Source: Candidatus Omnitrophota bacterium (GTDB lineage Bacteria > Omnitrophota > Gorgyraeia > Aquiviventales > Aquiviventaceae). From it: a stretch of DNA of 49,614 nt. Location of the stretch: positions 1-49,614 of the forward strand of contig JACQRD010000067.1 of assembly GCA_016206675.1 (NCBI GenBank). Direction: 5' to 3'. The position numbers and the translations under genes were made by a program. This document shows, in pieces, positions 26,331 through 49,614 of the stretch. Under the pieces are notes generated by a model, which ran no database searches, was not told the DNA's origin, and worked only from the letters and a program-made list of their open reading frames with translations. Each line of letters opens with the position of its first letter. Within the stretch, counting starts at the first letter, position 1.

Positions 26331-26404
26331 TGCCCCAGCGCCGATTCGAACGGCGGACACGCGGTTTAGGAAACCGCTGCTCTTCCATACTGAGCTACTG
26401 GGGC
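26331..26404 (-). tRNA. tRNA-Arg (anticodon CCU)
   Basis: The reverse complement folds as a 74-nt cloverleaf: acceptor GCCCCAG/CTGGGGC, D arm GCTC-AGTATGGAA-GAGC, anticodon arm GCGGT-TTCCTAA-ACCGC, variable GTGTC, T arm CGCCG-TTCGAAT-CGGCG, discriminator A. No encoded CCA. Followed by CTTTTT. Confidence 0.93.
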
Positions 26405-26405
26405 G

Positions 26406-27323
26406 TCAGCGTTTGGACTTTCCATTGCGCATCTTTCCATCGACCATCCGTCTTTTTTCGGCGCCCATCTTCTCTGCGGTACTCTTCCGCGCATCGTCTT
26501 TTATCTTCTGATCTGTTTCTTCTGTCGCGATGAGGGCGCGGAGCTTGCGCATGGCGGCCACCTCGATCTGGCGCACGCGCTCGCGCGTGATGCTGAAAAA
26601 TTTCGCGGTTTCGCCCAGGGTGCGGGAAATGCCGTCATCCAGCCCGTAGCGCAGCACCAGCACCCGCCGCTCGCGCTCGTTCATCTTCTGCAGCAGCGCG
26701 TCGATGCGCTCATGCTGGAGAAAGCGCGTGATCTCCTCCTGCGGGGAGTGGCCGCTCTCATCCTCCAGCAGGTCGATCATCTCGGTCTCCCCTTCCTCGC
26801 CCACCGGCGTTTCGAGGGAGGTGGTCTGCGCCGAGGTCACCAGCTCTTGCAGGCGCTCGATGCGCTCCACCGGCAGGCGCATCCGCCGGGCGAGTTCCAT
26901 GGCGCTCGGACGGCGGCCGAGCTTCTGCGACATCTCCTCGGTGATCCGCTTGAACTTGGAAATCAGCTCCGTCATGTAGACCGGAATGCGCACGGTTTTG
27001 CCCTGGTTGGCGATGGCGCGCGTGATGTACTGGCGGATCCACCAAGCACCGTAGGTGGAGAAGCGAAACCCTTTTCGGGGATTGTACTTGGTCACCGCCT
27101 TCATCAGGCCGAGGTTGCCTTCTTCGATCAGATCGAGCAGCGGCACGCCGAGGTGGGAGTAACGCTTGGCGATGTTGATGACCAGCCGCAGGTTGGAGAG
27201 CGTCATCTGCCGCTTGGCCACCCGGTCGCCCTTCCTGATCTTCCTGGCGAGCTCAATCTCCTGCTTGGCCGTCAGGAGCGGGATGGACTTGATATCCTTG
27301 AGATAGGAACGAATAGGATCCAT
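26406..27323 (-). CDS. RNA polymerase sigma factor, sigma-70 family (RpoD-like, no region 1.1, basic C-terminal tail)
   Basis: ATG 27323 gives MDPIRSYLKDIKSIPLLTAKQE. Region 2 DLIEEGNLGLMKAVTKYNP...FSTYGAWWIRQ. Region 4.2 TLGETAKFFSITRERVRQIEVAAMRKLR. Track start 27536 translates the heptamer repeat. Confidence 0.88.
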   Translation of the reverse strand: MDPIRSYLKDIKSIPLLTAKQEIELARKIRKGDRVAKRQMTLSNLRLVINIAKRYSHLGVPLLDLIEEGNLGLMKAVTKYNPRKGFRFSTYGAWWIRQYITRAIANQGKTVRIPVYMTELISKFKRITEEMSQKLGRRPSAMELARRMRLPVERIERLQELVTSAQTTSLETPVGEEGETEMIDLLEDESGHSPQEEITRFLQHERIDALLQKMNERERRVLVLRYGLDDGISRTLGETAKFFSITRERVRQIEVAAMRKLRALIATEETDQKIKDDARKSTAEKMGAEKRRMVDGKMRNGKSKR

Positions 27324-27328
27324 CGTTA

Positions 27329-27402
27329 GCACACAGCACACAGCACACAGCACACAGTGAAGACGCTCTTGCTGTCTGCTGTCCGCTGTCTGCTGTCTGC
27401 TG
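27329..27402 (-). repeat. heptamer-array hairpin (plus strand: CACACAG x4 ... CTGTCTG x4-5)
   Basis: Arms 27329-27357 and 27371-27402, loop 27358-27370. Each heptamer pairs 6/7; the seventh position is G opposite G in minus-sense RNA. Fills the ppdK stop to sigma start gap. Confidence 0.85.
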
Positions 27403-27405
27403 GCG

Positions 27406-30117
27406 TCATGTCCTTCTCTCGCGGACGACGGCTTGGGCAGCGGCCAGGCGGGCGATCGGCACGCGATACGGCGAGCAGGACACATAGTCCATGCCCACCC
27501 GGTGGCAGAACTCAATGGAGGAGGGCTCGCCGCCATGCTCGCCGCAGATGCCCACCTTCAGCCCCTTGCGCGCCTTGCGGCCCTTGGCGATGCCCAACTG
27601 GATCAGCTGGCCCACGCCCTCCTGATCGAGCTTGGCAAAGGGGTCGGCCGGCAGGATATCTTCCTTCAGGTAGTGCGGCAGGAACTTGCCGATGTCATCC
27701 CGTGAAAAACCGAAGGTCATCTGCGTCAGGTCGTTGGTGCCGAAGCTGAAGAATTCGGCTTCCTTGGCGATGACATCCGCCACCATGGCCGCGCGCGGCA
27801 CCTCGATCATGGTGCCGAGGAGGTATACCAGCTTCACCTTGTAGCGCTCAATCGTCTTCTTGGCGACCTCATCGATAACCTGCTTCGCCGCCCGGAATTC
27901 GTTCGGATGGCCGACCAGCGGGACCATCACTTCGGGCACGATCTTCACTCCGTCCCGCGCCAGCTCGCAGGCGGCCTCAAAGATGGCCTGTGCCTGCATG
28001 TCGTTGATCTCCGGGTAGGTCAGCCCTAAGCGGCAGCCGCGGTGGCCGAGCATCGGGTTGATCTCATGCAGGCTATTGATCGTCTGCCGCAGGACCTTGA
28101 GGTCGATCCCCAGCTGCTTGGAGAGCTTCTCCTGATCCTCTGGATCGTTCGGCAAGAACTCATGCAGGGGCGGATCCAGCAGCCGGATCGTCACCGGCAG
28201 CCCTTTCATCACTTCGAAGAGGCCCTTGAAGTCCTCCTTTTGGAAGGGCGGCAGCTTGGCCAGCGCCGCCTTGCGCGCCGCCACATCGCGCGCCAGGATC
28301 ATCTCGCGCACCACCGGCAGCCGCTCCTCGCCGAAGAACATGTGTTCGGTGCGGCAGAGCCCGATGCCCTCCGCGCCGAATTCGCGGGCCACCTTTGCAT
28401 CCTGCGGGGTGTCGGCGTTGGCCCGGATGCGCAGCCGGCGCACCTGATCGGCCCACTGCAGCAGCTGCTTGAAGCTGCCGGTCAGCTGCGGCTGAACCAC
28501 CGGCACCTCGCCCAGGATCACTTCCCCGGTTGAGCCATTGAGCGTGATGGCGTCCCCTTCCTTAATGACGCGGTCGCCCACCTTAAAGCACTTCGCGTCT
28601 TCTTCAACCGTAATGTCATTGCAGCCGACCACACAGCACTTGCCCATGCCTCGCCCTACAACTGCCGCATGGCTTGTCATCCCCCCGCGCGCGGTCAAAA
28701 TCCCTTGCGCGGCGGCCATGCCTTCGATGTCTTCGGGCGAGGTTTCCTCGCGCACGAGGATGACCTTCTCCGCGCCGTCCTCGCTGAACTCCACCGCCCG
28801 GTGCGCCGTGAAGACGGCCTTGCCCACGGCGGCACCCGGTGAGGCCGGCAGCCCCTTCGCGATGACCTGCGGCTTGGCCCTGGGATCGATCATCGGGTGC
28901 AGCAGTTGGTCGAACTGCGCGGCGTTGATGCGCAGCAAGGCCTCGCGCTGCGAAATCAGCTTCTCCTTCACGAAGTCCACGGCGAACTGCACCGAGGCGC
29001 GGGCGTTGGCTTTGCCGGCGCGGCACTGGAGCATGTAGAGGGCGCCTTCCTCAACCGTAAACTCGATGTCCTGCACCTGCTTGAAGTACCGCTCCAGCCG
29101 CTGGCAGACCTTCCAGAGCTGCTCGTAGAGCTTGGGGAGCTCGGTCTTCAGCTCGGCCACCGGCTTGGGCGTGCGGATGCCGGCGACCACATCCTCCCCT
29201 TGCGCGTTGACCAGGTACTCGCCGTAGAAGACGTTCTCGCCGGTGCCCGGGTCGCGGGTGAAGCAGACGCCGGTCAAGGAGGTCGAGCCCATGTTGCCGA
29301 AGACCATCGACTGGATGTTGACCGCCGTGCCCAGCGAGTGCGGGATGTTGTTGAGGCGGCGGTAGATGTTAGCCCGCTCGTTGTTCCAGGACGTGAAGAC
29401 GGCGTTGACGGCCAGCGTCAATTGTTCCATCACATCTTCCGGAAAGTCGCTGCCCTTCTTGGCGCGGACGAGCTGCTTGTATTCCCCCACCAGCTGCTTC
29501 AGGGCTTCCGCCGGAAGCTGCGCATCCGTCTTGGCATTGAACTTCGCCTTCTTCTTCTGCAGGATCTCCTCAAACTGCTTGTGGTCGATCTCCAGCACCA
29601 CGTTGCTGAACATCTGGATGAAGCGGCGGTAGGCGTCGTAGGCGAAGCGGGGATTCTCGGTCTTCTGGGCGAGGCCCTCCGCCGTGCGGGAGTTCAGGCC
29701 GAGGTTAAGGATGGTGTCCATCATGCCGGGCATGGACACGGCCGCTCCGGAGCGCACCGAAACCAACAGCGGATTCTTGGGATCGCCGAAGCCCTTTTGC
29801 GCCACGGCCTCCAGCCACTTCAGTTTCTGCCGGAGTTCCGCCTCGAGCCCCTGCGGCCAGCGCCCGCCCAGCTCGTAGAATTTCCGACACACCTCGGTGG
29901 TGAGGGTCAGCCCGGGCGGCACCGGCACGCCCAGGTTGGTCATCTCCGCCAGGTTCGCCCCCTTGCCGCCGAGCAGCTGCTTCATGTCGGCGCGGCCGTC
30001 CGCCTTGCCCGCCCCGAAGACATAGATGAAGCGCGGCTTGCTCGCGGAGAGCTGGCCTGCCCTGCGGCGGGTCGCGGGGAAGCGACGGCGGGCTGTGGCA
30101 ACGGACGTCCGGCTCAT
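27406..30117 (-). CDS. ppdK: pyruvate, phosphate dikinase
   Basis: 903 aa. GGKGANLAEM ATP-grasp N-terminus, phosphohistidine motif GGMTSHAAVVGRGMGK, PEP-utiliser C-terminus. ATGA overlap with the glyS stop. Confidence 0.93.
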   Translation of the reverse strand: MSRTSVATARRRFPATRRRAGQLSASKPRFIYVFGAGKADGRADMKQLLGGKGANLAEMTNLGVPVPPGLTLTTEVCRKFYELGGRWPQGLEAELRQKLKWLEAVAQKGFGDPKNPLLVSVRSGAAVSMPGMMDTILNLGLNSRTAEGLAQKTENPRFAYDAYRRFIQMFSNVVLEIDHKQFEEILQKKKAKFNAKTDAQLPAEALKQLVGEYKQLVRAKKGSDFPEDVMEQLTLAVNAVFTSWNNERANIYRRLNNIPHSLGTAVNIQSMVFGNMGSTSLTGVCFTRDPGTGENVFYGEYLVNAQGEDVVAGIRTPKPVAELKTELPKLYEQLWKVCQRLERYFKQVQDIEFTVEEGALYMLQCRAGKANARASVQFAVDFVKEKLISQREALLRINAAQFDQLLHPMIDPRAKPQVIAKGLPASPGAAVGKAVFTAHRAVEFSEDGAEKVILVREETSPEDIEGMAAAQGILTARGGMTSHAAVVGRGMGKCCVVGCNDITVEEDAKCFKVGDRVIKEGDAITLNGSTGEVILGEVPVVQPQLTGSFKQLLQWADQVRRLRIRANADTPQDAKVAREFGAEGIGLCRTEHMFFGEERLPVVREMILARDVAARKAALAKLPPFQKEDFKGLFEVMKGLPVTIRLLDPPLHEFLPNDPEDQEKLSKQLGIDLKVLRQTINSLHEINPMLGHRGCRLGLTYPEINDMQAQAIFEAACELARDGVKIVPEVMVPLVGHPNEFRAAKQVIDEVAKKTIERYKVKLVYLLGTMIEVPRAAMVADVIAKEAEFFSFGTNDLTQMTFGFSRDDIGKFLPHYLKEDILPADPFAKLDQEGVGQLIQLGIAKGRKARKGLKVGICGEHGGEPSSIEFCHRVGMDYVSCSPYRVPIARLAAAQAVVRERRT

Positions 30118-32258
30118 GAGGGCTCCTGTTGTAAGACGGTAAGTTTCGAGAGGTCGGCAACCCGGTCAGTATACAACGCATGGATTGCGCGCATCAAGGC
30201 GAGCCGGTTGCGTTGCAGCGCCTCGTCGGGCACGTTGACCAGCACCTTGTCGAAGAACGTGTGCAGCGGCTCATAGAAGAGCTCTCCGAATTCTAGCGTG
30301 GCTTTGTCGTACAGGCGGTCGGTGATGAGCTTCGCGACCCGCTCCTTATGCTGATCGTACAACCGCCACAGTGCCTGCTCCGGCGGCTCCTTCAGCAGTT
30401 GCGGCTGCACCTGGCCGTCCGCACGCTTGGCCCCTTTGAGGATGTTGCGCGTGCGCTCGATGACCTTCGCGGCCTTCAGCAGCCCGGCCTGGCCGCTCAT
30501 CCGCTGGAGGGTGCGGATGCGGTCCATGGCATCGATCATATCTTCCCATGGACAGGCCAGCACAGCGTCAATACAGTCCGATGAAGGGGCCGGGGATGGC
30601 CAGTTGAAGGTGTAGAGTCTTTCTGCAAGGTAGCTGCGAACACGCTGTTGTACCTTCGCATCAGGTGGCTTTCCAGCAGCCGCCGACCATGCGTTGAACA
30701 GATTCTCAAACAACAGCGGTCGATGCGCAGCCCATGCCACTTCTATGATTCCTTGCGCGGCACGCCGAAGACCAAAAGGATCCTGATCTCCTGTCGGTTC
30801 GATGCCGATGCTAAAGTAACTCGCGAAGGTATCAAATTTGTCCAGGCTAGCTAGTGCAGAACCAATGAGGGTCTTGGGCATCTTACCAGCAAGTGGCAGG
30901 TAGTGCTCCTCGATTGCTTGACACACGGCGTCAGATTCACGATGGATTCTGGCGTAGTATTTCCCCATCACACCCTGCAAAGTCGGAAACTCCCTGACCA
31001 TAACGCTACCAAGGTCAGCCTTGGCAAGCTGGCTGGCCCGTTCAAGCTCTTTGGACTCTTGATTCGTCAGGTTCCACATCTTGCTAAGGTTTCTGCTCAT
31101 CTGGCAGAGGCGGTTGACCTTGTCCTGCACAGAGCCCAACTTTTCGTGGAAGGTGATTCCGGCAGCCTTGACGGCAAGCACGTTTAGTTGCTGTTTAGTG
31201 TCCTGCTCCCAGAACAACAAGCTATCCGCCAGGCGGGCGTTGAGGATACGCTCCACCACCGTGCGCACCTCCGACGGCTTGCCGGGCTTGCCGTCCAGGA
31301 TGGCGACGCAGCGCGGCAGCAGCTTCCCGTTGGCCTCAATGGCGAAAACGCGCTGGTGCTTGGCCATGCTGGCCAGCAGCACTTCGCGCGGCAGGACCAG
31401 ATAGCGCTTATCGAATTCGCCGACCAACGGCACCGGCTCTTCCGTCAAGAAGGTCACTTCCTCCAGCAGGCCGTGGCTGATCATCTCCGCCGCCGTGGTG
31501 CCGCGGAAGGCCTTGGCGGTTTTGGCCACCAGGCTGTCAATGACGGCGCGCCGCTGGCTTGGATCGAGGATCACCCCGACGCGCTTCAGCAGCTTGAAGT
31601 AGGATTCAATGGAGGAAACCGTCGCCCAGCGCAACTGCTGCGGCCGTCCCACGCGTGTCTTAGATTGGCCGGCGATCAAACCGAAGCGGCACGAAACCGC
31701 CTGCGCGCCATAGCGGGCCAGCAGCCAACGGATGGGCCGGGCGAAGCGCACGCCGCTGGCCTCCCAGCGCATACTCTTCGGCGCGCGCAGCTTTGTGATA
31801 AGCTGCGGCAGCAGGGCCGGCAGCAGCTTGACGGTCGGGGTGGTCGTGGGCGGCTTCATGAGGTAGACGTAGTCGCCCTTCGGCGTTGAGACGACTTTGG
31901 TGTGGCGGATGTCTCCGCCTTGCGACTTGAGGAAACCGAGCAGGGCCGGCGTGGGCTTGCCGGAGGCGTCGTAGGAGGCCTGCTTCGAGGGGCCGCGCAC
32001 CTCCTCGCCGGGCTGCTGTTGCACCGCGGAGAGCCCGCGCACGTGTAGCACCAACCGGCGCGGCGTGCCGTACGTCGCTGCCGAGTGGAACGCCAGGTGG
32101 TTGGCTTCACACAGCGTCTTGGCTTCCCGGTCGAGCTGTTCAATCAGCCCAGGCAGGTACGCCGCCGGCAGCTCCTCCGTCCCGATTTCAAAGAGAAGAT
32201 CAGCTGACCGCGAAGCTGGAGGTTGGAGGCTGGAGGCGGGAATGGATTTCTTTTTCAT
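30114..32258 (-). CDS. glyS: glycine--tRNA ligase beta subunit
   Basis: 714 aa. [12 protein letters not shown] near the N-terminus. The first ~20 codons ([18 protein letters not shown]) are read from a heptamer repeat arm. Confidence 0.9.
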
Positions 32259-32287
32259 CCAACTTCCAGCTGCTTGCTTCCAGCTTC
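32212..32287 (-). repeat. heptamer-array hairpin, GAAGCTG family, copy 1, spanning the glyQ stop / glyS start
   Basis: Plus strand: GAAGCTG GAGGTTG GAGGCTG GAGGCGG ... CCAACTT CCAGCTG CTTGCTT CCAGCTTC. Best hand register is 32212-32226 with 32259-32273 (15 nt, 2 mismatches). ATGA 32255-32258 lies at the loop edge. Confidence 0.8.
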
Positions 32288-33127
32288 AGGGCATCGTTTG
32301 AGGTACATCTCCGCGCAGCGCTTGGCCAACCCGCGGATGCGCAGCACGAAGCGCGGCCGGTCGGACTGGCTGATGGCGCCGCGCGCATCCAGCAGGTTGA
32401 AGGTGTGGCTGCATTTGAGCAGCTGTTCGTACGCCGGCAGCAGCATCTGGGCCTCGAGCAGCCGCTTGGCATCCGCCTCGAACTTCGCGAAGAGCTCCTG
32501 ATGTAGTGCCACGTCCGCCTGCTCGAAGTTATACGCGGAGCACTCCCGCTCATTCGCCAGGTGCAATGCGCCGTAGGTGACCCCTGGGCCGTAGGCGAGC
32601 GCGTAGACATCCGGCGTGCCCTGCAGGTACGTGGCGATGCGCTCAAGGCCGTAGGTGATTTCGCAGGAAACCGGCTCAAGGTCCAGCCCCCCCACCTGCT
32701 GGAAATAGGTAAACTGCGTCACTTCGAGGCTGTCCATCCACACTTCCCAGCCCAGCCCCCAGGCGCCGAGCGTCGGCGATTCCCAGTCATCCTGCACGAA
32801 GCGAACGTCGTGATCCTCCAGCTTCAGCCCACAGGCGCGCAGGCTCTCGAGATAGCGCTGCTGCACGTTCTCCGGCGAGGGCTTCAGGATCACCTGATAT
32901 TGGTAGTAGCGCTGCATCCGCAGCGGGTTGTCGCCGTAGCGGCCGTCCGTAGGCCGGCGGGAGGGCTGTACATAGGCCGCGCGGGTCGGCGCCGGACCCA
33001 GCGCCCCAAAGAACGTGGCGGGGTGGAACGTCCCCGCCCCCATCTCCATGTCGTAGGGCTGGAGAATCGCGCAGCCTTCGCGCTCCCAAAACGTATCCAG
33101 CGTTCGAATGAGTCGTTGAAGGTCCAT
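32255..33127 (-). CDS. glyQ: glycine--tRNA ligase alpha subunit
   Basis: ATG 33127 gives [39 protein letters not shown], a classic GlyQ N-terminus. Track start 33190 translates the repeat. Confidence 0.92.
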
Positions 33128-33132
33128 AGGCA

Positions 33133-33909
33133 CTAGACCCGAGACCCGTGACTCGCGACCCGAGTCTCGGGTCTCGAGTCTCGAGTCCACCCAGCTAATG
33201 TCTTTAGCGGTCTATCCAGGCGCCAACGCAGGAACTCATCCAGCCGGCGGCGCAATCCTGGCAGCGCGTGAGCATCCAGGGCGATGGGCTGATCGCTCTC
33301 CGAGAGCCGCTCCAAGGTTTCCAACGTGCTGTGCAGCACCGGTTCGGCCTTCGGATCCTCGTGCAGACAGTTGGCGCACAGCAATCCGCCCTGCTGCGCG
33401 CTCCAGTAGCCGGCGTGATGCACCATCGCGCCACACCCGGTGCACTCATCCACCTGCGGCTGAAAGCCGGCCAGCCGCAGAAACCGCACGATGAAATGGG
33501 TCCGGATCATCGCGGGGTCGGATCCGGCCACGGCCAGATGCTCCAGCGCCGACTTCAGCAGCCGGTAGACCGCCGGCTGCGGCTCATTCAGCGGGACGAC
33601 CGTATCCACCAGATCGACGCACAGCGCAGCGCTGCGGGCGACCTCCAGTTCCTGCTGCAGTGCCGCCAGCGGAGCCAGCAGCTCGCATTGGCTGATGAGA
33701 TGGAGCTGGCTGGTGTGCGTGTCGTAGAAGACGATGCGGTTGACCGTCATCGGCTCCATGGCGCTGCGATGGCGGTTCGGCAGCTGGCGCAACCCCTTGA
33801 TGAGCCCTTTCAGCTTGCCGTAGCGGTCCGTCAGGCAGCTGACTACGACGCTGGTTTCACGGTAGAAATACCGGCGCAGGACGATGGCATCTGCTGCATG
33901 AATGCCCAT
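33133..33909 (-). CDS. recO: DNA repair protein RecO
   Basis: ATG 33909 gives [27 protein letters not shown]. Cys cluster CTGCG...CANC. The C-terminal ~17 residues are encoded by a repeat. Confidence 0.85.
33135..33188 (-). repeat. heptamer-array hairpin, GACCCGA/GTCTCGA family, copy 1
   Basis: AGACCCGAGACCCGTGACTCGCGACCCGAGTCTCGGGTCTCGAGTCTCGAGTCC with a perfect central hairpin GACCCGA-gtc-TCGGGTC. About 95% identical to 33914-33967. Confidence 0.85.
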
Positions 33910-33911
33910 TG

Positions 33912-34427
33912 TTAGACCCGAGACCCGTGACTCGTGACCCGAGTCCCGAGTCTCGAGTCTCGAGTCCAACGCTTGGTATCTTCCGAACAGTTCGCCAATA
34001 GTCTATCTTCCAACTTTCGCATTTCTCGTTGCTGGGTGAGCGTGCGGTCGTCATGGCCGAGCCAGTGCAAAATGCCATGGACGACGTAGCGCGAGAGCTC
34101 CTGCGCGTACGACACGCCGTGGGCCTGGGCGTAGCGCTGCGCTTCCTTGGGTGCGACGAGCACCTCGCCGACAACCTGCCTGCGCCGTAGCGGCGCAGGC
34201 CAGCAGGTCGGCTCTCCCTCATACCGGAAACTGAGCACGTCGGTGGAGCGGTCGTGGCGCGTAAACCGGCGGTTGAGGCGGCGCATGCGCCCGGTGTCAA
34301 TGAAGGTGATGGCCAGCTCCCCGCCGCCACGGATCTTCAGCCGCCGCACCGCGGCGCGCGCCAGCTGTCGCATCCGGGCGGCGCTGACCGGGGCTTGCCG
34401 CTGGGCGTTGGTCACCCGCACCCGCAT
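33912..34427 (-). CDS. ybeY: rRNA maturation RNase YbeY
   Basis: HGILHWLGHDD zinc motif. The C-terminal tail TRDSRLGTRVTSHGSRV is encoded by a repeat. 1-nt TGATG overlap with phoH. Confidence 0.88.
   Translation of the reverse strand: MRVRVTNAQRQAPVSAARMRQLARAAVRRLKIRGGGELAITFIDTGRMRRLNRRFTRHDRSTDVLSFRYEGEPTCWPAPLRRRQVVGEVLVAPKEAQRYAQAHGVSYAQELSRYVVHGILHWLGHDDRTLTQQREMRKLEDRLLANCSEDTKRWTRDSRLGTRVTSHGSRV
33914..33967 (-). repeat. heptamer-array hairpin, GACCCGA/GTCTCGA family, copy 2
   Basis: AGACCCGAGACCCGTGACTCGTGACCCGAGTCCCGAGTCTCGAGTCTCGAGTCC, lying between the ybeY stop and the recO start. Confidence 0.85.
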
Positions 34428-35395: not shown

Positions 35396-35472
35396 GAAGC
35401 TGGACGTTGGAAGCTAGAAGCTGGAACAAGCCATGCGTTCTTTCCAGCTTCCAGCCTCCTGCTTCCAGCTTC
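35396..35472 (-). repeat. heptamer-array hairpin, GAAGCTG family, copy 2
   Basis: GGAAGCT GGACGTT GGAAGCT AGAAGCT GGAAC ... TTCCAGC TTCCAGC CTCCTGC TTCCAGC TTC. Both ends are homologous to 32212-32287. Confidence 0.8.
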
Positions 35473-36041: not shown

Positions 36042-36078
36042 CTCATCCTCCTTGTTCGAAAGCCCCAAATCCTAAACG

Positions 36079-36116
36079 GTTTGGTCTTGGTGCTTGGAAT
36101 TTGGTCATTGGTCATT
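36079..36116. repeat. tandem heptamers of the TTGGTCA type
   Basis: GG TTTGGTC TTGGTGC TTGGAAT TTGGTCA TTGGTCA T. The last unit overlaps the aspS stop codon (36112-36114). Partially complementary CCAAATCCTAAAC lies just upstream at 36065-36077. Confidence 0.7.
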
Positions 36117-38908: not shown

Positions 38909-39187
38909 CTACTTGATGTCCTGGCGCATGAGCAGGCCAGGTTTGAACACCACGACGCGCTTGGACGGCACGGGCACCTCTTGGCCGGTCTTGGGGTTGC
39001 GGCCGCGGCGCGGAGCCCGTTGCCGAACCTTGAAAACGCCGAAGTTGCGCAACTCCACGGTATGCCCGTCCTTCAAGCCCTGGATGAGGTGGTCTAAGGT
39101 CTTCTGGATCACCCGCTTGGCGTCCACCTGGGTAATGCCGGTTTCCTTGGAGACCGTTAGCACTAAGTCCTTCTTAGTCAGCGCCAT
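38909..39187 (-). CDS. HU/IHF family DNA-binding protein
   Basis: ATG 39187 gives MALTKKDLVLTVSKETGITQVDAKRVI...RNFGVFKVRQRAPRRGRNPKTGQEVPVPSKRVVVFKPG. Confidence 0.88.
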   Translation of the reverse strand: MALTKKDLVLTVSKETGITQVDAKRVIQKTLDHLIQGLKDGHTVELRNFGVFKVRQRAPRRGRNPKTGQEVPVPSKRVVVFKPGLLMRQDIK

Positions 39188-42200: not shown

Positions 42201-44148
42201 GCTTGCGCTTCATGAATTCGTCGAGCATGCCGGAGCCGATCGGGCCGGGCCGAAAGAGCGCGATGACGGAGATGATGTCCTCAAACTGGGTGGGGCGTAT
42301 CTTCTTGAGCAGATCGCGCATCCCCGAGCTTTCCAGCTGGAAGACTCCCATCGTCTCGGCCCGAGCGAGCAGCTGATAGGTGGGCGCGTCATCCAGCGGC
42401 AGCGTCTCGAGGTCGATGGGTGCCGCCCCGCGCTGCTCGGCGAGCTTGACCGCCTCGTCGATGACCGTCAGCGTGCGCAGCCCGAGCATGTCCATCTTGA
42501 GGATGCCGATGTGCTCCAGCGACTTCATGTCGAAGCCGGTGGTGATCTGGCTGTCGTTGCTCTTAAAGAGCGGCGTGTATTCGCTCAGCGGCTTATCGGC
42601 GATGGTAATGCCGGCGGCGTGCGTGGAGGCATGCCGGGTCAGCCCCTCCAGCACGAGGGCGGTATCCATCAGCTGCCGCACCTGCTCATTGGTGCGGTAG
42701 AGGTGGGTCAGCTCCGCCACTTCGGCCAGCGCGCGGGTGAGCGTGATGTCCAGCTCGTTCGGGATCAGCTTCGCCAGGCGGTCCGCCTCGGCGTAGGACA
42801 TCTTCATCACCCGCGCGACGTCCCGCACCACGGCCTTGGCCTGCATGGTGCCAAAGGTGATGATCTGGGCGACGTTCGTCTTGCCGTATTTCTGGATGAC
42901 GTAGTCGATCACTTCGCCGCGGCGCTCATAGCAGAAGTCGATGTCGATGTCCGGCTGGGTGACGCGCTGGGGATTGAGGAAGCGCTCAAAGAGCAGGTCG
43001 TACTTCAGCGGATCGATGTCGGTGATCCCCAGGCAGTAACTGACGAGGCTGCCCGCCGCCGAGCCGCGGCCCGGCCCGACGGGAATGCCGCGTTCCTTGG
43101 CGAAGCGGACGAAGTCCCACACGATCAAGAAGTAGCTGGTGTAGCCGGCTGGCCCGATGACGTCCAGCTCGTGCTTCAACCGCTGCGCAAGCTCCGGCGT
43201 GACGGCGGCGTAGCGGCCCTTCAGCCCCCGCTCGCAGAGCTCCTCGAGATACTGCCCTTGCGTCCGGCCCTGCGGCGGCTCGTAGTGCGGCAGGTGGATC
43301 TTGCCGAACTCCAGCTCCACGTTGCAGCGCTCGGCGATCTCGAGCGTGGCGGAGAGTGCCTGCGGATCCTCGGCAAAGAGCGCTTTCATCTGCTCGGCAG
43401 ATTTCAGATAGAACTCCGGCCGCTCGTAGCGCAGCCGGTTCGGGTCATCCAGCGTGGTCTGCGTCTGGATGGCCATCAACGCGTCGTGCGCCTGCGCATG
43501 GGAGGACTCGATGTAATGGACGTCGTTGGTGGCCACGCACTTCACCCCCGCGTCGGCGGCCAGCTGCCGCAGCAGCGGGCGCACTTTCTCCTCCAGCACC
43601 AAGCCGTGGTTCTGCAGCTCGATGTAGACGTGCTCCTTGCCGAGGATCTGGATGAAATCGTCCAGCTCCTTGCGGGCCAGCTCGAGTTGCTCCTGCGCGA
43701 GGTGGACGTTGAGCACCCCCTTCAGGCAGCTCGTCAGCATGATGAGGCCGTTCTTATGCTGGGCCAGGCTCTCCTTGTCGATGCGCGGCTTGTAGTAGAA
43801 GCCTTCCAGGTAGCTGAGGCTCACCAGCCGCATCAGGTTGGCGTAGCCCTCCTCATCCTTGGCGAGGATCACCAGGTGCGCGTTGGAGTCGCGGATGCCC
43901 GTGCCGGTCTTGTCGAAACGGCTCTTGGGCGCGATGTAGGCCTCGCAGCCGATGATCGGCTTGATCCCATGCTTCATGCAGGCTTCGTAGAATTCGATCG
44001 CGCCGAAGAGGTTGCCGTGGTCGGTCATGGCCAGCGCAGGAAACTTCATGTCCACGGCCCGCTTGATGAGCGGATCGATGCGGCAGGCGCCGTCTAGGAG
44101 GGAGTAGTTGGTGTGCAGGTGCAAGTGGACGAAATCCGCGTGGAGCAT
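39223..44148 (-). CDS. dnaE: DNA polymerase III alpha subunit, interrupted in frame by an intein
   Basis: 1641 aa against about 1160-1180 expected. PHP HLHLHTNYSLLDGA, GPGRGSAAGSLVSYCLGITDIDP, C-terminal OB fold. The conserved FAGYGFNK|SHSAAYA is split by 458 aa. Confidence 0.93.
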   Translation of the reverse strand: MLHADFVHLHLHTNYSLLDGACRIDPLIKRAVDMKFPALAMTDHGNLFGAIEFYEACMKHGIKPIIGCEAYIAPKSRFDKTGTGIRDSNAHLVILAKDEEGYANLMRLVSLSYLEGFYYKPRIDKESLAQHKNGLIMLTSCLKGVLNVHLAQEQLELARKELDDFIQILGKEHVYIELQNHGLVLEEKVRPLLRQLAADAGVKCVATNDVHYIESSHAQAHDALMAIQTQTTLDDPNRLRYERPEFYLKSAEQMKALFAEDPQALSATLEIAERCNVELEFGKIHLPHYEPPQGRTQGQYLEELCERGLKGRYAAVTPELAQRLKHELDVIGPAGYTSYFLIVWDFVRFAKERGIPVGPGRGSAAGSLVSYCLGITDIDPLKYDLLFERFLNPQRVTQPDIDIDFCYERRGEVIDYVIQKYGKTNVAQIITFGTMQAKAVVRDVARVMKMSYAEADRLAKLIPNELDITLTRALAEVAELTHLYRTNEQVRQLMDTALVLEGLTRHASTHAAGITIADKPLSEYTPLFKSNDSQITTGFDMKSLEHIGILKMDMLGLRTLTVIDEAVKLAEQRGAAPIDLETLPLDDAPTYQLLARAETMGVFQLESSGMRDLLKKIRPTQFEDIISVIALFRPGPIGSGMLDEFMKRKHGQISVKYEHPRLEPILKATYGIVVYQEQVMRIASDLGGFSMAQADLLRRAMGKKIADVMEAQRKAFVEGCRKNGVTERVASRTFDLMEHFAGYGFNKCVVGETEILDADTGAVVTVESLHRARRPLRTLSVDEQLRLVKRDVVDVVSNGRKPVFRVTTHLGHEITVTDNHPFLTVEGWKELRDLRAGSFVAVPRHLKTVTARTKHALEPHEIIALAAILSEGNTCHPSGVYVYNNDREFIDDFVAAAQRFPSTVPRVTQRGKLFEVYTGTGLSTVFVKGHAPWNKGRSGYRRAGTHDVSSPVARSGIRQWIESLGLAWVASTEKFVPAVMFEQSEEHLALFLGRLWSGDGYLWGATGTPLPFYATSSRQLAAQVQQLLRRLGIVSSLKSKRFRYRGGIRPGYAVYTSGKEQVLRFIDRVCPHLMGRQAALRGLRRHYECVRDDQTSKDVIPASIKTIVREAKQQAGTTWPELERRSGVSMKEFVGGAHPTKRGFRRSTIQRLAEYFESPELLRYATSDVYWDRIRSIEPCGTAETYDLTIDGTHNFVANGIAVHNSHSAAYAMISFRTAYLKARYPVEFMTALLTSEMGNTDKLVVYLDEAKRMGLTILPPDVNESQAAFTAVDARTIRCGLGVIKNVGMGAIESILQARQASPPAEAASAQAGRFQTMAQLCRHIDLRLANRKVCESLIKAGACDSMGLPRAALLAALDQAMEEATSEQKDLAKGQLTFFDMLAGETPQAGQEPEAATGHARDWPESQKLAFEKELLGFYVSGHPLARYAQSMRLLASATSRQLLHTAEGSVVTVGGMLTKIKRTTTKKTNEQMAVCVLEDLEGEVETLIFPGSYQQLAGQLIPNAVVLVEGRVAMRDDQPRLIAQQIVPMAQGTGKLAQSIEFLVQGAEKQKLEQLKELLARFPGAVPVYLRVEMPGQAPMQLKLSEEFQVDPTPDLLDELIRLLGESAITIKRLPPKPPGGFARPRLSGVGNFSEDDA
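40534..41907 (-). mobile_element. DnaE intein (458 aa) with LAGLIDADG-type homing endonuclease domain
   Basis: Residues 748-1205. Cys1 (CVVGETEIL), block B TVTDNHPF, C-terminal FVANGIAVHN followed by Ser+1. Two LAGLIDADG-like motifs: ALAAILSEGN and ALFLGRLWSGDGY. Boundary codons checked in the DNA (TGC at 41905-41907, AAT at 40534-40536). Confidence 0.85.
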
Positions 44149-44164
44149 GAAATCAGTGTAGCAA

Positions 44165-44283
44165 GGGTTACAAGTGGTTACTAGAAGTTACTAAAAGTTA
44201 CCAGCGGTTACCGGTAACCGATAGCAACATCATGCCACTTCACCATAGTCGTAACCGATGGTAACTGTTTGTAACCGTTACAA
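44165..44283. repeat. 10-nt-phased GGTTAC / GTAACC repeat array with central palindrome
   Basis: GTTAC starts at 44167, 44177, 44187, 44197 and 44207. Palindrome GGTTACCGGTAACC at 44206-44219. GTAAC starts at 44251, 44261 and 44271. 44187-44211 is complementary to 44251-44275 with 3 mismatches. Confidence 0.85.
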
Positions 44284-45321
44284 GCGGTTGATGCGATGAA
44301 TGAGCTGGATCAGGCGCCCGAAATCCTTGCGGTTGAACTTCAAGATCAGCCGCGGCAACTGTGCGAGCTGCGGCTCATCCGCTTCCTCCGCCAGCGCGTT
44401 GCCCTGACGGATGGGGCCGACGGTGAGGATGTCGCTGAACTCTTCCGACAGCCGCCCAAGCGCCGCGTCGGGAATGCGCTGCTGCAGCCGCATGACGAGC
44501 TTCTCCCCCACGTAGCGGATGGAGTGGTAGACGCGGTAGAACTGCACGATTTGCCGCGCCGCGTCCTCCGCGGAGCGCGCCGCCTGGTAGATGGACCGGT
44601 CGCTCGAAGAGATCATGCCGCGCTGCACCAGCCGCTCCTCGAAGAACTTGAGCATCGGCCGCCAGAACGTCCCCCGGGGGCTATCGACGAACACAATCGG
44701 TCGCGGGTCGGACTTGCCGGTCTGCACCAGCGTCAGCGACTCGAAGCCCTCATCGAGCGTGCCGAAGCCGCCGGGAAACAGCGCGGTGGCGTGCGACTCC
44801 TTGATGAAGAGCAGCTTGCGCGTGAAGAAATACTTGCAGGTGATGAGCTTCTGGTCTTGCGCGATGACCGGGTTGGCCCCCTGCTCAAACGGCAGGCGGA
44901 TGTTCAGCCCCACACTGGCCTCGCGTCCGGCGCCCTCATGCCCCGCCCCCATGATGCCGCTGGCCGCCCCCGTGATCACCATCCACTTCGCCTGGGCCAT
45001 GCGGCTTCCGAACTCCTTGCCCATGGCGTAGGCCGGATGCTGCCGGTGCAGGCGGGCTGAGCCGAACATCGCCACCTTGCGGATGGTGCGGTAGGGCCGC
45101 AGGATCTTGAAGGCGTAGCGCAGCTCCTTGATCGCGGCGTTGATGAGCTTCAGATCGCCGGTGGAGGCCCGATCCTGCCCCAGACGGTAGGCCGACACCA
45201 CCAGCTCGCTTAAGAGCCGCCGGTCGAACTCATCCGGAAAGCCGGCCATCAGCGCGGCGATCTGGGCGTCAACGGCGGCGTTGTGCGTCGTGTACAGCCG
45301 CGGCTCGGGGGGCTGCGGCAT
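44278..45321 (-). CDS. LOG / TIGR00730 family protein (nucleotide 5'-monophosphate nucleosidase-like) with extensions
   Basis: ATG 45321 (MPQPPEPRLY), 1-nt TGATG overlap with the upstream stop. VAMFGSARL and PGGFGTLDE motifs. Confidence 0.78.
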   Translation of the reverse strand: MPQPPEPRLYTTHNAAVDAQIAALMAGFPDEFDRRLLSELVVSAYRLGQDRASTGDLKLINAAIKELRYAFKILRPYRTIRKVAMFGSARLHRQHPAYAMGKEFGSRMAQAKWMVITGAASGIMGAGHEGAGREASVGLNIRLPFEQGANPVIAQDQKLITCKYFFTRKLLFIKESHATALFPGGFGTLDEGFESLTLVQTGKSDPRPIVFVDSPRGTFWRPMLKFFEERLVQRGMISSSDRSIYQAARSAEDAARQIVQFYRVYHSIRYVGEKLVMRLQQRIPDAALGRLSEEFSDILTVGPIRQGNALAEEADEPQLAQLPRLILKFNRKDFGRLIQLIHRINRL

Positions 45322-46463
45322 CAGAAGCGCGCCACCCACCAATTCAGGAGCAGCCCCACCGCCAAGACCATCGGGATCGTCACCGCCAGCAGCCACACCA
45401 CCGTCCGGCGGCCGATGTTCAGCCACAGCGCCCCGAGCTCGGTATAGTCGGTCACGACGCCGGCCATCAGGAAGGCGAAGCTGTTGCCGAAGGCGCCAGT
45501 TTGCCGGTACAACTCGAAGGCCAGCGGTGCGGTTCCTTCGGAGCAGACTTCAATGATGGCCGCCAGCAGCAGCGTGAGCAGCAACCCCCCGACCGAGGGA
45601 CCGAGCCACTGGCTGGAGACATGGTGCGGGATGAACGCGCCGGAGAGCGCGCTCAGCACCAATCCCAGCTGCACCCAGCCGAGCACCATCCGCCCCAGCG
45701 GAATCATGCCCTCCAGCACGCCGTGCGCGTCATCGGCCATCCGCCCCGCCGACCAGCGGTAGGCCTTCCACCGGCGGCGCATGTCCTTGCGGATCGAAAA
45801 GTGTTCCGGGACGACCGACGTGTTCCGGTTCGACTCGATCAACCCCTTGGCCGCGAGCCGCTGGAAGATCAACCCAGTCAAAAACGCGATGAGCAGCGCC
45901 GCCGCCATGATGATGAAGCCCTTGACACCGAAGAGGCTCAGGAGAATGAGCGTCAGCGACATGCTCGCCCAGGGGCTGGCGAGCAAGAAGCTGACCACCG
46001 CCGGCACCGAGGCGCCTTTGCGGAAGAGCTCCAGCGACAGCGCCAGGCATCCGTGGCTGCAGCTCGAAGCGAGAAACCCCAGGAGGGTGGCGCGGGCGAT
46101 CACCCGCTTGCGCGCGCCGGTGAGCATCTTCACAATATACTCCTTCGGAATAAAGCGATCCACCACGCCGCCGATGAGCAGCCCCAGCAGCATCGGCCCG
46201 GCCACGGTCTTCAGATAGCCGGCGTAGATGGCGCTGACGCGTTCGGTCGCCGGCAGCCACGCCCCCAGGGTGGCCATGAGCACGCCTGAGAGCGGCACCC
46301 AGATCCATGGATCGCACCACCATGCCATTCTCCCCATCTGGACGACCGCGATGGTCGTCTGGGCCGCGCGCTGGTCGAAGACCTTGATGCAGCGCTGGCT
46401 GCAAAACCAGTGGCCGGCGTGCTCGATCGTGCCGGTCATCCCACAAATTGGATCTTTCCTCAT
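45321..46463 (-). CDS. YHS/TRASH-like metal-binding domain fused to a multi-TM permease (DUF318/ArsP-like)
   Basis: N-terminal DPICGMTGTIEHAGHWFCSQRC, then about 8 hydrophobic helices including ASSCSHGC. Confidence 0.62.
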   Translation of the reverse strand: MRKDPICGMTGTIEHAGHWFCSQRCIKVFDQRAAQTTIAVVQMGRMAWWCDPWIWVPLSGVLMATLGAWLPATERVSAIYAGYLKTVAGPMLLGLLIGGVVDRFIPKEYIVKMLTGARKRVIARATLLGFLASSCSHGCLALSLELFRKGASVPAVVSFLLASPWASMSLTLILLSLFGVKGFIIMAAALLIAFLTGLIFQRLAAKGLIESNRNTSVVPEHFSIRKDMRRRWKAYRWSAGRMADDAHGVLEGMIPLGRMVLGWVQLGLVLSALSGAFIPHHVSSQWLGPSVGGLLLTLLLAAIIEVCSEGTAPLAFELYRQTGAFGNSFAFLMAGVVTDYTELGALWLNIGRRTVVWLLAVTIPMVLAVGLLLNWWVARF

Positions 46464-46470
46464 GTCCGTC

Positions 46471-46575
46471 TATCGTCGTTCGTTTGTCGGTAACGTAGCC
46501 CGTATCGTTGTTCGGTGACGTCTCACGTAACCGATAACCGAAACGGGCAACGTCACCGATGACCGAACACCGTCA
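46471..46575 (-). repeat. imperfect hairpin of about 105 nt built from short repeats (CGGTRAC / GTYACCG)
   Basis: Left arm 46471-46521, loop 46522-46524, right arm 46525-46575. About three quarters of positions are complementary by hand alignment. The right arm ends in the pyk stop codon; the left arm ends 8 nt from the permease ATG. Confidence 0.75.
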
Positions 46576-47610
46576 CCGCGTTCTACGAACGCCGCGGTAG
46601 GGGGCGTGCCGCTCGATATGCTCGATGATCAGGCGCATCATCCGCACCGTTTCCACCGGATACCGGCCGGTGGCGGTCTCGCCGGAGAGCATGACGAAAT
46701 CCGAGCCGTCGATGACGGCGTTGGCCACGTCGCTGACCTCGGCGCGCGTCGGCTGGCGGTGGTCGATCATGTGCTCCAGCATCTGCGTGGCGGTGATGGC
46801 GGGCTTCTTGTGGTGGTTGCAGGCGGCGATCATCCACTTCTGCAGGATCGGAATCTCGTAGATCGGCACCGAGATGCCCAGATCGCCGCGCGCGACCATG
46901 ATGCCGTCGCAGGCGCGCAGAATCGCCGCGAAGTTCCGGATGCCCTCGCGGTTTTCGATCTTTGCGAGCACCTTGCAGTGCGGCAGGCGCGCGCGCAGCC
47001 GGCGCTTGACCGCCTCCACATCCGCCGCGTTGCGCACGAAGGACTGTGCGACGTAGTCGATCTTGTGGTTGATGGCGAAGTCCAGATCCTGGATGTCCTT
47101 CGTGCTGATCGGCGGAAACTCCAGAGGAGCACCGGGGATGTTCACGCCCTTGCGCTCCCCCAGCCGCCCCTCCTGAATGACGATCGTATCCAAGCGGTCG
47201 TGGGAGCTGCGCAGGATCTTCAAGTGGATATTGCCGTCCTCAATGAAGATCAGCTGCCCGGACCGGATCTGCTTGAAAGAGCCGGGGTAATCCATCGAGA
47301 CGCCCCGGCGCGAGCCCGGCACCAGCACCCGGTAGAGCGCAAACTGCTGCCCGGTCTGCAGCATCACGGGACGTCCGCCGGCCAGATGCCCCGTGCGGAT
47401 GCGATGGCCGGCCAAATCCTGCAGGATGCCGATGTGGCGGCCTACGCGCTGCTGCACCTTGCGGACGCGCTCCAGCATCCGCTCATGGCTCTCCATGGTG
47501 CCGTGGGAGAAGTTGAAGCGGAAGATGCACACGCCCTCTTTCACCAGCGCCGCCAGGACGTGCGGCCGGGCGCAGGCCGGCCCGATCGTGGCGATGATGC
47601 GCGTTCTCAT
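46573..47610 (-). CDS. pyk: pyruvate kinase, A+B domains only (no C-terminal domain)
   Basis: ATG 47610 ([12 protein letters not shown]) in an ATGA overlap with the upstream stop. [30 protein letters not shown] present. The protein ends at 345 aa. Confidence 0.85.
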
Positions 47611-48221
47611 GGAGTCCGGGCAGGCCCGAAGCGATCGGCGTCGGGTGTTCGCTGCGGCGGCTCGGCCCGGATCGGAAGCGAGGCGCTCAATTCGGCCGAT
47701 CCTGGAATGCACACGTCATGGCAGGCCAACCATTCGACCTTGGCCTGCAGCGGCAGCGGGTTATCTACGCGCTCCTTCCCTGTGACATGCAGCCGGCTGG
47801 AGAGCAGCACCTCGCCGCGATACCCGCGCGTGTGGATCTCTCCGGGGTCGACAAACTCCTCGGCCGGCGGCCACTCGAGGGGGCCGAAGATCTCTCCGCC
47901 GGCCCGCCGCCACGTCACTTTCGTCGGCATGCCGGCATCACCCGGCTCTTGCGCATAGATGTGCCAGCCGTCCTTGATTGTGAACAGCACGCCGACTCTG
48001 GTATCGCCCGGCAGCTGAACCGAGGCGTGCTCTGTCATCAGCTCAGCCGTCACTGGCTGCTCCTTCGGCGCAGCAAACTGCACATTCGGCCGTTGTTGTT
48101 CCGCCTGGCTGGGTTTCGCTCCGCACCCCAGCATCGCCGTAATCGCCACCGCTCCGATAAAGAGGTGCGCTCTCCGGCCTTTGCTGTCTGCTGTTTGCTG
48201 TCTGCTGTTTGCTAAAGTCAT
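47607..48221 (-). CDS. lipoprotein with DsbD N-terminal-like (DsbC/PF11412-like) domain
   Basis: ATG 48221 in an ATGA overlap with the guaA stop. Lipobox [27 protein letters not shown]...[11 protein letters not shown] resembles the thiol:disulfide interchange DsbD-N fold. Confidence 0.55.
48181..48213 (-). repeat. tandem heptamers (plus strand: TTGCTGT CTGCTGT x2.5) inside the first 14 codons of the lipoprotein gene
   Basis: Minus sense reads AGCAAAC AGCAGAC AGCAAAC AGCAGAC AGCAA, the same unit family as one arm of the 27329-27402 hairpin. No complementary arm nearby. Confidence 0.8.
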
Positions 48222-49614
48222 TCCCACTCAATTGTCGCTGGGGGCTTTGAGGAAATATCGTACACCACACGATTCACGCCTTTGACTTCATTGATGATGC
48301 GATTTGAGATGCGCCCCAGCAGCTCCGGCGGCAGCTTGGCCCAGTCGGCGGTCATCGCGTCCTGGCTGGTGACGGCGCGGATGGCGATGACGTGCTCGTA
48401 GGTGCGCTCATCTCCCATCACCCCCACGGTTTTCACCGGCAGCAGCACCGCGAAGGCCTGCCAGAGCTTGCGGTAGAGGCCGGCGCGGCGGATCTCCTTC
48501 ACGATGCGCTCATCCGCCTCGCGCACCATCCGTAGCCGCTCGGGAGTGACCTCCCCAAGAATGCGCACCGCCATCCCTGGCCCTGGGAACGGATGGCGCA
48601 GCAGGACCTCTTCGGAGAGGCCGAGCAGCCGGCCCAATTCCCTCACTTCATCCTTGAACAGGTCGCGCAGCGGCTCTACGAGCTTCAAGTGCATCCGCTT
48701 GGGCAGCCCGCCGACGTTGTGGTGGGTCTTGATGGTGGCGGAGGGCCCGCCCCAGGCCGAGACGCTTTCGATCACGTCCGGATAGAGCGTGCCTTGGGCC
48801 AGAAACCGCACGCCGGAAATCTTCTTGGCCTCCGCCTCGAAGACGGCGATAAACTCCCGTCCGATGATCTTGCGCTTCTGCTCCGGGTCGGTGACCCCTT
48901 TCAGCCGGCCGAGAAAGCGCGCGGAGGCGTTGACGACCTTGAGGTTGAGATGGAAGTGGCGCCCGAACATGTCCTCCACCTGCCCGCGCTCGCCGCTGCG
49001 CAGCAGGCCGTTGTCCACGAAGAGGCAGGTCAGCTGCCGGCCGATGGCCCGGTGCAGCAGCAGGGCGGCCACCGAGGAGTCGACCCCGCCGCTTAAGCCC
49101 AGCACCACCCGCCCGCGCCCCACCTTCTGCCGGATGCGCGCCTCGGCTTCCTTGATGAAGGAGCGCATCGTCCACTCCCCGCGGCAGCCGCAGATGCGAA
49201 AGAGGAAGTTCTTCAGGATCGCCGTGCCCTGCTCGGTGTGGGCCACCTCGGGATGGAACTGCAGGCCGTAGAGCCGGCGCTTGGGATCGGCCATGGCGGC
49301 CGCTTCGGTATTGTCAGTGCGAGCGCTGACCGCGAAACCCGCAGGCACGCGGGCGACCAAGTCGCCGTGGCTCATCCAGGAGACGAACGACCGCCGCATG
49401 CCGTTGAAGAGGCCATCCGGCTTGCCGACGGTCAACACCGCCTTGCCGTACTCGCGCTTGGGCGAGCGCTCCACCCGCCCGCCGAGCCGGTAGGCCATGG
49501 CCTGCATGCCGTAGCAGATGCCGAGGGTGGGGATGCCCGCCTTGAAGATGTCGCGCGAGGGCAGCGGCGCGTGGGGCTGGTAGACGCTGTTGGGGCCGCC
49601 GGAGAGGATCAACC
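48218..49614 (-). CDS. guaA: GMP synthase (glutamine-hydrolysing), N-terminus outside window
   Basis: GATase remnant [10 protein letters not shown]...GICYGMQ, PP-loop [16 protein letters not shown]-terminal ...[14 protein letters not shown]. Confidence 0.92.

Follow-up and report, generated by a model that had tools for sequence, protein, structure and literature searches.

What does it mean that successive genes in a housekeeping cluster of an uncultured bacterium are joined in some places by overlapping start and stop codons and in others by long hairpins? The question is raised by contig JACQRD010000067.1 of a Candidatus Omnitrophota bacterium (assembly GCA_016206675.1; 1.10 Mb, 97 contigs, 65% G+C, 78% complete; labelled G000 in our genome comparison). 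The contig was analysed in its entirety, and its 49,614 nucleotides (nt) are referred to below as the window. The minus strand carries every gene from guaA down to tRNA-Arg(CCT) (26330-49612), and most of the hairpins between these genes are built from tandem units of 7 nt. An earlier note on this DNA proposed that they punctuate very long polycistronic transcripts, in analogy to repetitive extragenic palindromic (REP) elements and the bacterial interspersed mosaic elements (BIMEs). The explanation that we favour, with a probability of roughly two in three (0.68), is that the hairpins are proliferating palindromic repeats which have inserted into compact stop/start junctions and travel as co-transcribed passengers, and that they are not conserved operon punctuation. 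An empty, ancestral junction would be a start/stop overlap (ATGA or TGATG) or a gap of a few bases, an occupied junction would be the same site after the addition of a palindromic repeat from a class found throughout the genome, and overlaps and hairpins would be two states of a single type of site.

The evidence begins with the abundance and uniformity of the repeats in the genome as a whole. Strong hairpins number 306, compared with 17 in shuffled sequence, and 143 of them display a clear 7-nt periodicity in their arms; detection relied on ungapped 6-mer seeds, which missed the split hairpin at glyQ/glyS, and this one was read by eye. Arrays of at least three units occur 196 times with a period of seven, compared with 0-9 times for periods of 5, 6 and 8-15, and are absent from the shuffles. 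The shared architecture consists of about four tandem heptamers, a loop and about four complementary heptamers; 166 of 240 arrays hold 4-5 units (median 4.3), independent of the sequence of the unit and also outside the largest families. Medians are 70 nt for the length of an element, 12 nt for its loop and -40 kcal/mol for its predicted RNA folding energy, and the arms have a uniform length of ~28-30 bp. Among 162 hairpins, which between them use 83 unit pairs, 60 have one mismatch at the identical position in every unit, mostly C.C or G.G. The leading units (AGCACAC/TGCTGTC, GCTCAAG/CCTTCAG and ATTGCGA/AATCCGC) are mostly not G-rich. The largest families comprise 21, 14 and 6 copies with near-identical arms and loops that vary in length as well as in sequence, and family 1 occurs in both orientations, with 12 of 18 copies in one of them. 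The contig ends of the assembly hold 18 heptamer elements (13 hairpins and five single arms), which suggests that the repeats probably break the assembly. An assembly artefact was rejected as the source of the class, since the same class is present in independent metagenome-assembled genomes and in metagenomes from different projects.

Within the array, the heptamer elements, all assigned to the minus strand, sit in the junctions in several different ways; five of them (at ppdK/sigma, recO/glyQ, ybeY/recO, LysM/phoH and HU/hisS) are strong hairpins. The ppdK/sigma hairpin (27328-27401), a member of the largest, 21-copy family, reads (CAGCAGA)x4, a 14-nt loop and (GTGTGCT)x4; 25 of 30 positions are paired with one C.C or G.G mismatch per unit, and the element fills its gap, with 4 nt left on each side. 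The hairpins at LysM/phoH (35396-35472; GAAGCTG units, 26 of 31 positions paired, 15-nt loop) and HU/hisS (38791-38864; ATTGCGG units, 28 of 32 paired, 10-nt loop) also lie between reading frames. At glyQ/glyS the split hairpin, which belongs to a GAAGCTG/CCTCCAG family (32212-32287), carries the ATGA overlap (32255-32258) in its loop, and its arms encode the tail of GlyQ and the head of GlyS, the first ~17-20 residues of the latter coming from the 3′ arm. Two elements of 57 nt flank recO. The one at recO/glyQ (33133-33189, with the hairpin at 33135-33181) consists of GACTCGA/GACCCGA units and is translated in frame as the tail of RecO, with its own stop codon 5 nt ahead of the glyQ ATG; the one at ybeY/recO (33912-33968, hairpin 33911-33970) is 95% identical to it and is translated as the tail of YbeY, WTRDSRLGTRVTSHGSRV, with its own stop 2 nt ahead of the recO ATG. 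A longer hairpin at pyk/permease (46478-46568; 34 of 44 positions paired, 3-nt loop) has a degenerate 7-nt periodicity (0.51), and a single-arm array, (CAGCAGA)x4.6 or equivalently (TGCTGTC)x4.6, at 48180-48213 is translated within the N-terminus of the lipoprotein. The earlier note had placed a repeat structure at every junction that is neither an overlap nor a short gap, and most of these junctions indeed hold hairpins. At aspS/LysM there is only a weak single arm, a degenerate half element (36042-36111) of (TGACCAA)x2.3 and CCAA-rich remnants with a predicted fold of -18 kcal/mol, and the structure at LOG/dnaE (44162-44279) is a period-10 GTAAC/GGTTAC array with a long-loop inverted repeat (44187-44275) and not a heptamer element. 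The spacing of ~10 nt in this array, which occupies the 129-nt gap upstream of dnaE, equals one helical turn, so that the motifs may serve a regulator as a row of binding sites.

Further evidence for insertion comes from relatives in which the same genes meet without hairpins. A cross-genus comparison covered 17 genomes with the same gene order, which are related to each other and are not independent samples. Occupancy of the junctions is patchy across this set, and in three of the genomes (G007, G008 and G011) the array is free of hairpins, with gaps of 6-98 nt at the corresponding places. In the nearest relative (RecO 82% identical), ybeY/recO and recO/glyQ are both TGATG overlaps, precisely where the window has its 57-nt (19-codon) elements; none of the 16 relatives has the WTRDSR...GSRV tails of RecO and YbeY, and 9 of 13 further metagenome loci have no hairpin on either side of recO. 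A closer comparison was sought in an exact-protein look-up of HU, which returned no match, and in a metagenome scan, which revealed no strain of the same species, the best match being the one 82% identical in RecO. Where a junction is occupied in several genera, the units differ: at LysM/phoH the unit is GAAGCTG in the window and GGAATGC, GGATCGT or ATTGCGG in other genera. Conversely, the ATTGCGG unit found here at HU/hisS sits at three other junctions in another genus, and one genome reuses one unit at several junctions. A unit is shared in 35% of pairs drawn from different junctions of one genome, in 23% of pairs that compare one junction between genomes, and in 11% of other pairs; which heptamer is used depends more on the genome than on the junction. 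The density of the class is also patchy across the family, ranging from 0 to 3.8 arrays per 10 kb, and the class is nearly absent from other families of the taxonomic class (one array in 138 kb). At the level of sequence, these comparisons show repeats that multiply or homogenise within a genome, survive mainly just past stop codons and turn over between genera.

The position of the repeats relative to genes was analysed on a genome-wide scale with our own codon-bias gene caller, which includes start trimming and yields 1046 genes with approximate predicted starts. Heptamer elements are found 166 times at junctions compared with 32 times within genes. Of the co-directional junctions 17% contain such an element, of the convergent ones 21% and of the divergent ones 10%. 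Counted per junction, the three classes do not differ significantly; counted per kb of remaining non-coding DNA, the elements reach densities of 2.5, 3.4 and 0.39, respectively (chi-square p = 7e-5). The high density in convergent gaps and the six-fold depletion in divergent gaps tie the elements to the 3′ ends of genes and not to co-directional gaps. Hairpins start at a median of 12 nt past the stop codon and end at a median of 24 nt before the next start, and those in long gaps mostly adjoin the upstream stop. The analogy to REP elements and BIMEs accordingly holds for placement, in the distance from the stop codon and in the depletion of divergent gaps. As to the correlation with co-directional gaps that the earlier note had suggested as a check, divergent gaps are depleted per kb, and convergent junctions contain hairpins as frequently as co-directional ones.

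That neighbouring genes share a transcript was the other half of the proposal, and here the geometry is informative. At co-directional junctions, 25 of 118 heptamer hairpins are no more than 15 nt away from the stop codon on one side and from the start codon on the other. A promoter would not fit into such a gap, and transcription of the next gene must pass through the hairpin. The ppdK/sigma gap with its 4-nt margins and the two hairpins translated as protein tails are examples from the array. Genes are thus very probably co-transcribed through the hairpins, in agreement with the earlier note. Canonical terminators are rare genome-wide, hairpins with U-tracts are almost absent, and a T-run (at least six T in the next 10 nt) follows the hairpin in two of the 118 cases. 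Nor does the array hold a credible rho-independent terminator, as had been noted previously: a consensus scan found 12 terminator-like sites, fewer than the ~16 expected from shuffles, and all are weak and intragenic. An Rfam scan of the region identified no known RNA family besides the tRNA. If the hairpins had been maintained for their fold in the mRNA, G.U pairs should outnumber A.C mismatches. Among the mismatches in the sense mRNA of the 118 heptamer hairpins, G.U is not in excess over A.C (110 versus 134), and nothing points to selection acting on these hairpins in the sense RNA; hairpins outside the heptamer class show a modest sense bias (87 versus 56).

The array in which the hairpins sit resembles the rest of the genome. 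Co-directional junctions make up 860 of 949 (91%), same-strand runs reach up to 29 genes and are often ended by contig ends, and a quarter of all genes lie in runs of at least 18. The run in the window itself extends past the tRNA to ~19.9 kb and includes 22 protein genes. The order dnaE-HU-hisS-aspS-LysM-phoH-ybeY-recO-glyQ-glyS-ppdK-sigma, together with the next two genes, is kept in loci of 16 other genera of the family. Judged by direction and gene order, the array is an ordinary compact co-directional housekeeping cluster, the core order of which is inherited across this groundwater family of Candidatus Omnitrophota. Hairpin-free co-directional junctions in the genome are tight, with 30% overlaps and a median gap of 14 nt, and hairpin-occupied ones have a median of 29 nt of free space left once the hairpin is discounted. 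Shine-Dalgarno-like motifs precede 24% of predicted starts compared with 13% in a control window, and translation may rely heavily on coupling.

Taken together, these results would fit the following course of events. Copies arriving in tight junctions would be transcribed within long mRNAs and would persist if the upstream frame stays open and a stop codon is supplied beside the next ATG, as in the RecO and YbeY tails, or alternatively if the ATGA is kept in the loop, as at glyQ/glyS; selection would act as the filter. If the repeats affect the mRNA, for example by blocking 3′ exonucleases, this would be a side effect or the result of later co-option and not the reason for their presence.

It is important to point out that several observations weigh against this explanation. 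Occupancy is uneven, with hairpins in 7 of 17 genomes at glyQ/glyS, 5 of 13 at ppdK/sigma, 4 of 14 at LysM/phoH and none of 12-16 at five other junctions (chi-square p ~0.001, without correction for relatedness). This unevenness and the six-fold per-kb depletion in divergent gaps could both stem from a function that the hairpins have where genes end and not from mere tolerance, and the strict four-unit architecture across unrelated units points to a structural constraint. A mover is also lacking among the candidates considered. In G000, which is 78% complete, neither a Y1 transposase (PF01797; the REP-associated tyrosine transposase, RAYT) nor a DDE_Tnp_1 transposase was found. Y1 genes are encoded in 18 of 26 family genomes and do not track the hairpins: the hairpin-rich G015 and G018 lack them, and the three genomes with hairpin-free arrays have them. 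A REP-RAYT linkage was rejected on these grounds, as was a DDE transposase as mover. No target-site duplication or consistent flanking direct repeat is evident. Loops differ between copies except in two pairs with identical loops, and the arms behave as inverted repeats; since arms are near-identical and loops are not, simple copy-and-paste is insufficient without gene conversion or selection on the arms. Finally, ATGA lies in a hairpin loop at glyQ/glyS in several genera with different arms. The uneven occupancy, the glyQ/glyS loop and the four-unit design keep a co-opted role alive, and they are equally explained by tolerance at particular junctions and inheritance between sister genera.

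The principal alternative is that the hairpins are functional punctuation, RNA barriers selected to stop 3′-to-5′ exonucleases such as polynucleotide phosphorylase (PNPase) and to confer differing stabilities on the cistrons. There is a precedent in the E. coli malEFG operon, where REP elements set the differing stability of upstream and downstream cistrons. The start of the hairpins just past stop codons, their scarcity in divergent gaps and the very stable predicted stems are what such barriers would look like; PNPase, RNase E/G, RNase Y and Rho are encoded, the rarity of canonical terminators could call for another signal at mRNA ends, and at some junctions several genera have hairpins that are made of different units. 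The difficulty is that hairpins are not kept at the same junction across genera, that whole arrays do without them, and that the nearest relative lacks them at both recO junctions. The sense strand has no G.U excess, and some hairpins are translated and must be melted by ribosomes. The junction that most often holds a hairpin, glyQ/glyS, separates the genes for two subunits of a single enzyme, a pair for which differing stabilities would be the least expected. RNase III, moreover, was not found with either TIGR02191 or PF14622 in 26 family genomes (G000-G024 and G041), nine of which are at least 90% complete, and processing by this enzyme was rejected for the same reason. We consider selected punctuation unlikely. 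Of the original proposal, co-transcription and a REP- or BIME-like placement are supported; a function tied to the array is not, given the patchy occupancy, the empty sites, the lack of a G.U excess, the frequency at convergent junctions and the RNase III result. A bolder version is that hairpins of 4x7 nt have been recruited as a general 3′-end signal for cistrons in a lineage that seems to be without RNase III and has few Shine-Dalgarno sites and hardly any canonical terminators. They would block 3′ exonucleases and set segmental mRNA stability, and folding would bring close-lying stop and start codons together, so that coupling could survive an 80-nt insertion; this we hold to be distinctly improbable.

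The same placement data could be taken to mean that the hairpins are terminators without U-tracts, or aids to Rho-dependent termination, and that the array is really a series of many short transcription units. The elements lie just past stop codons, at convergent junctions as often as at co-directional ones and rarely in divergent gaps, Rho is present, and U-tract hairpins are almost absent. Such an explanation is very unlikely, considering that only 2 of 118 hairpins are followed by a U-run, that 25 of 118, among them ppdK/sigma and the two translated copies, leave no space for a promoter, that the downstream genes (sigma, glyQ, glyS and recO) are essential housekeeping genes, and that relatives with the same gene order do without the hairpins. 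Least probable of all is an action at the level of DNA, where the hairpins would serve as cruciforms or protein-binding sites in nucleoid organisation, supercoiling or replication, much as BIME elements bind IHF and gyrase. Mismatches are strand-symmetric and the fixed ones mostly C.C or G.G, and conserved arms of uniform length with loops free to vary would suit such a role. With 83 unit pairs in 162 hairpins, a single sequence-specific binding protein is ruled out; the proximity to stop codons and the scarcity in divergent gaps point to gene boundaries and not to chromosome position, and occupancy among relatives is patchy.

A search of the literature on short tandemly repeated repetitive (STRR) and heptanucleotide sequences and on repeats in Omnitrophota returned no description of this class in Omnitrophota. 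By their sequence features, the closest published relative is the group of heptameric simple sequence repeats of Xanthomonas (GGGAATC) and Nostoc (GGGGAYT; the cyanobacterial STRR) described by Rehm et al. 2015 (PMC4692102). These repeats prefer four units, frequently form convergent pairs capable of stem-loops (70-75 per Xanthomonas genome), are enriched between aligned open reading frames within 50 bp of stop codons, are under-represented in coding DNA and divergent gaps and are mostly transcribed; one G-rich unit dominates, and the four units were ascribed to G-quadruplex formation (PMC4692102). The period-7 excess, the four-unit preference, the inverted pairs, the placement near stops and the depletion in coding and divergent DNA are all seen in the Omnitrophota genome, as far as sequence goes. 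In contrast, dozens of unrelated units are used here, mostly not G-rich (AGCACAC, GCTCAAG, ATTGCGA) and without a unit of the GGGNATC type; nearly all copies are hairpins, many repeat one mismatch in each unit, and some have become part of reading frames. Since many units that are not G-rich obey the four-unit rule, the G-quadruplex explanation cannot apply here.

Similarity to other known systems is partial, with REP/BIME elements and miniature inverted-repeat transposable elements as analogues in function and evolution. Like REP elements, BIMEs and the related REPINs (E. coli and Pseudomonas; PMC3733652, PMC3184786), the hairpins are short, imperfect, high-copy palindromes with an extragenic, intra-operon and post-stop location and genome-specific families. 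Their arms, however, are tandem heptamers and not a unique palindrome of 20-40 bp. REP palindromes end in a GTAG or CGTC tetranucleotide (PMC3733652). This end tag is absent from the three largest families here, the only ones that were checked. Rickettsia palindromic elements and the Neisseria Correia elements, which are miniature inverted-repeat transposable elements, are small, non-autonomous and co-transcribed palindromes that can be absorbed into open reading frames; the RecO, YbeY, GlyQ and GlyS ends in the window absorb hairpin sequence in a comparable way, but no target-site duplication or conserved interior is seen, the arms are microsatellite-like and the loops are not conserved. In phage T7 (RNase III sites) and in mitochondria (tRNA punctuation), conserved structures between cistrons are cut by a dedicated enzyme. 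The Omnitrophota stem-loops likewise lie exactly between the cistrons of probably long transcripts; they differ in that they are not conserved at the same junctions and that RNase III was not found in the family genomes.

The array itself consists of 17 protein genes and one tRNA, i.e. 18 genes with 17 junctions; the earlier note had counted 19, and its assignment of all of them to the minus strand is correct. From the upstream end, the order is guaA (48218-49612, truncated by the contig end), a DsbD_N-domain lipoprotein (47607-48221; Pfam), pyruvate kinase (pyk, 46573-47610, 345 amino acids), a permease of the SO_0444/SaoE-like efflux family (45321-46463), a LOG/TIGR00730 family protein (44278-45321), dnaE (39223-44148, 1641 amino acids, with an intein; Pfam), an HU/IHF family protein (38909-39187), hisS (37494-38771), aspS (36112-37503, 463 amino acids), a LysM-domain protein (35481-36041), phoH (34427-35386), ybeY (33912-34427; TIGR00043), recO (33133-33909; TIGR00613), glyQ and glyS for the alpha and beta subunits of glycine-tRNA ligase (32255-33127 and 30114-32258), ppdK for pyruvate, phosphate dikinase (27406-30117; TIGR01828, 1379 bits), an RpoD-like sigma-70 family factor of 305 amino acids (26406-27323; NCBIfam and translation), the ATG of which lies 4 nt after the ppdK/sigma hairpin, and tRNA-Arg(CCT) (26330-26404; ARAGORN, Rfam 61 bits), which starts 1 nt past the sigma stop. 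The pyruvate kinase matches only model positions 2-339 of 476 and hence lacks the C-terminal domain. The seven start/stop overlaps and two short gaps that had been reported were confirmed by reading the bases directly: ATGA at guaA/lipoprotein, lipoprotein/pyk, glyQ/glyS and glyS/ppdK, TGATG at permease/LOG and phoH/ybeY, an overlap of 10 nt at hisS/aspS, and gaps of 35 nt at dnaE/HU and 1 nt at sigma/tRNA. A TTTTT run directly follows the tRNA-Arg gene (26320-26330), and ~70 nt further downstream lies the best sigma-70-like promoter match of the region (TTGACA-17-TAAAGT, 26254-26226), which precedes a gene for an Alginate_exp-family outer-membrane protein. The tRNA-Arg end is the likely end of the transcription unit and the only place in the region where one unit plausibly gives way to another.

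Other mobile or repeated sequences are also present. The DnaE intein contains a LAGLIDADG domain and spans about residues 745-1210, whereas dnaE in relatives is ~3.5 kb long and intein-free. The phoH gene measures 2.2-3.2 kb in two relatives (L013 and L014), and that of L013 has a stretch 24% identical to the DnaE intein; in a further relative (L027), ppdK exceeds the ppdK of the window by 1.2 kb. Inteins appear to move between housekeeping genes within the family. Elsewhere in the window, a non-heptamer repeat family of ~111 nt, its copies 92-93% alike, is found at three gene junctions in both orientations (4870-4980, 16138-16175 and 22260-22376). Three elements of ~125-140 nt with terminal inverted repeats of 14-17 bp (6864-6990, 12691-12820 and 14549-14687) lie at plus-strand gene junctions and represent a second type of insertion at such sites. 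At 16000-18400 of the window, the genes change over from the plus to the minus strand, with a convergent pair at 18308/18358; the cumulative GC skew has its maximum at ~16 kb, and the switch may therefore mark the replication terminus or a leading-strand boundary.

If the hairpins are indeed inserted passengers, the alternation of overlaps and hairpins along the array would represent the empty and occupied states of one type of site and not a designed punctuation code. The occupied junctions would then be natural examples of essential, coupled genes that tolerate palindromes of 60-80 nt, either by way of an in-frame tail with its own stop codon or by keeping the ATGA in the loop. The apparent family-wide lack of RNase III, which is unusual for bacteria, suggests a condition under which long perfect stems could be permitted inside mRNAs, including the 30-bp stems described here. 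A four-unit rule that holds without G-rich units weakens the case for G-quadruplexes as its cause and suggests a mechanism governed by structure or by the process of copying. Lastly, a poorly understood phenomenon, the heptamer repeats of Xanthomonas and cyanobacteria, is extended to an uncultured phylum.

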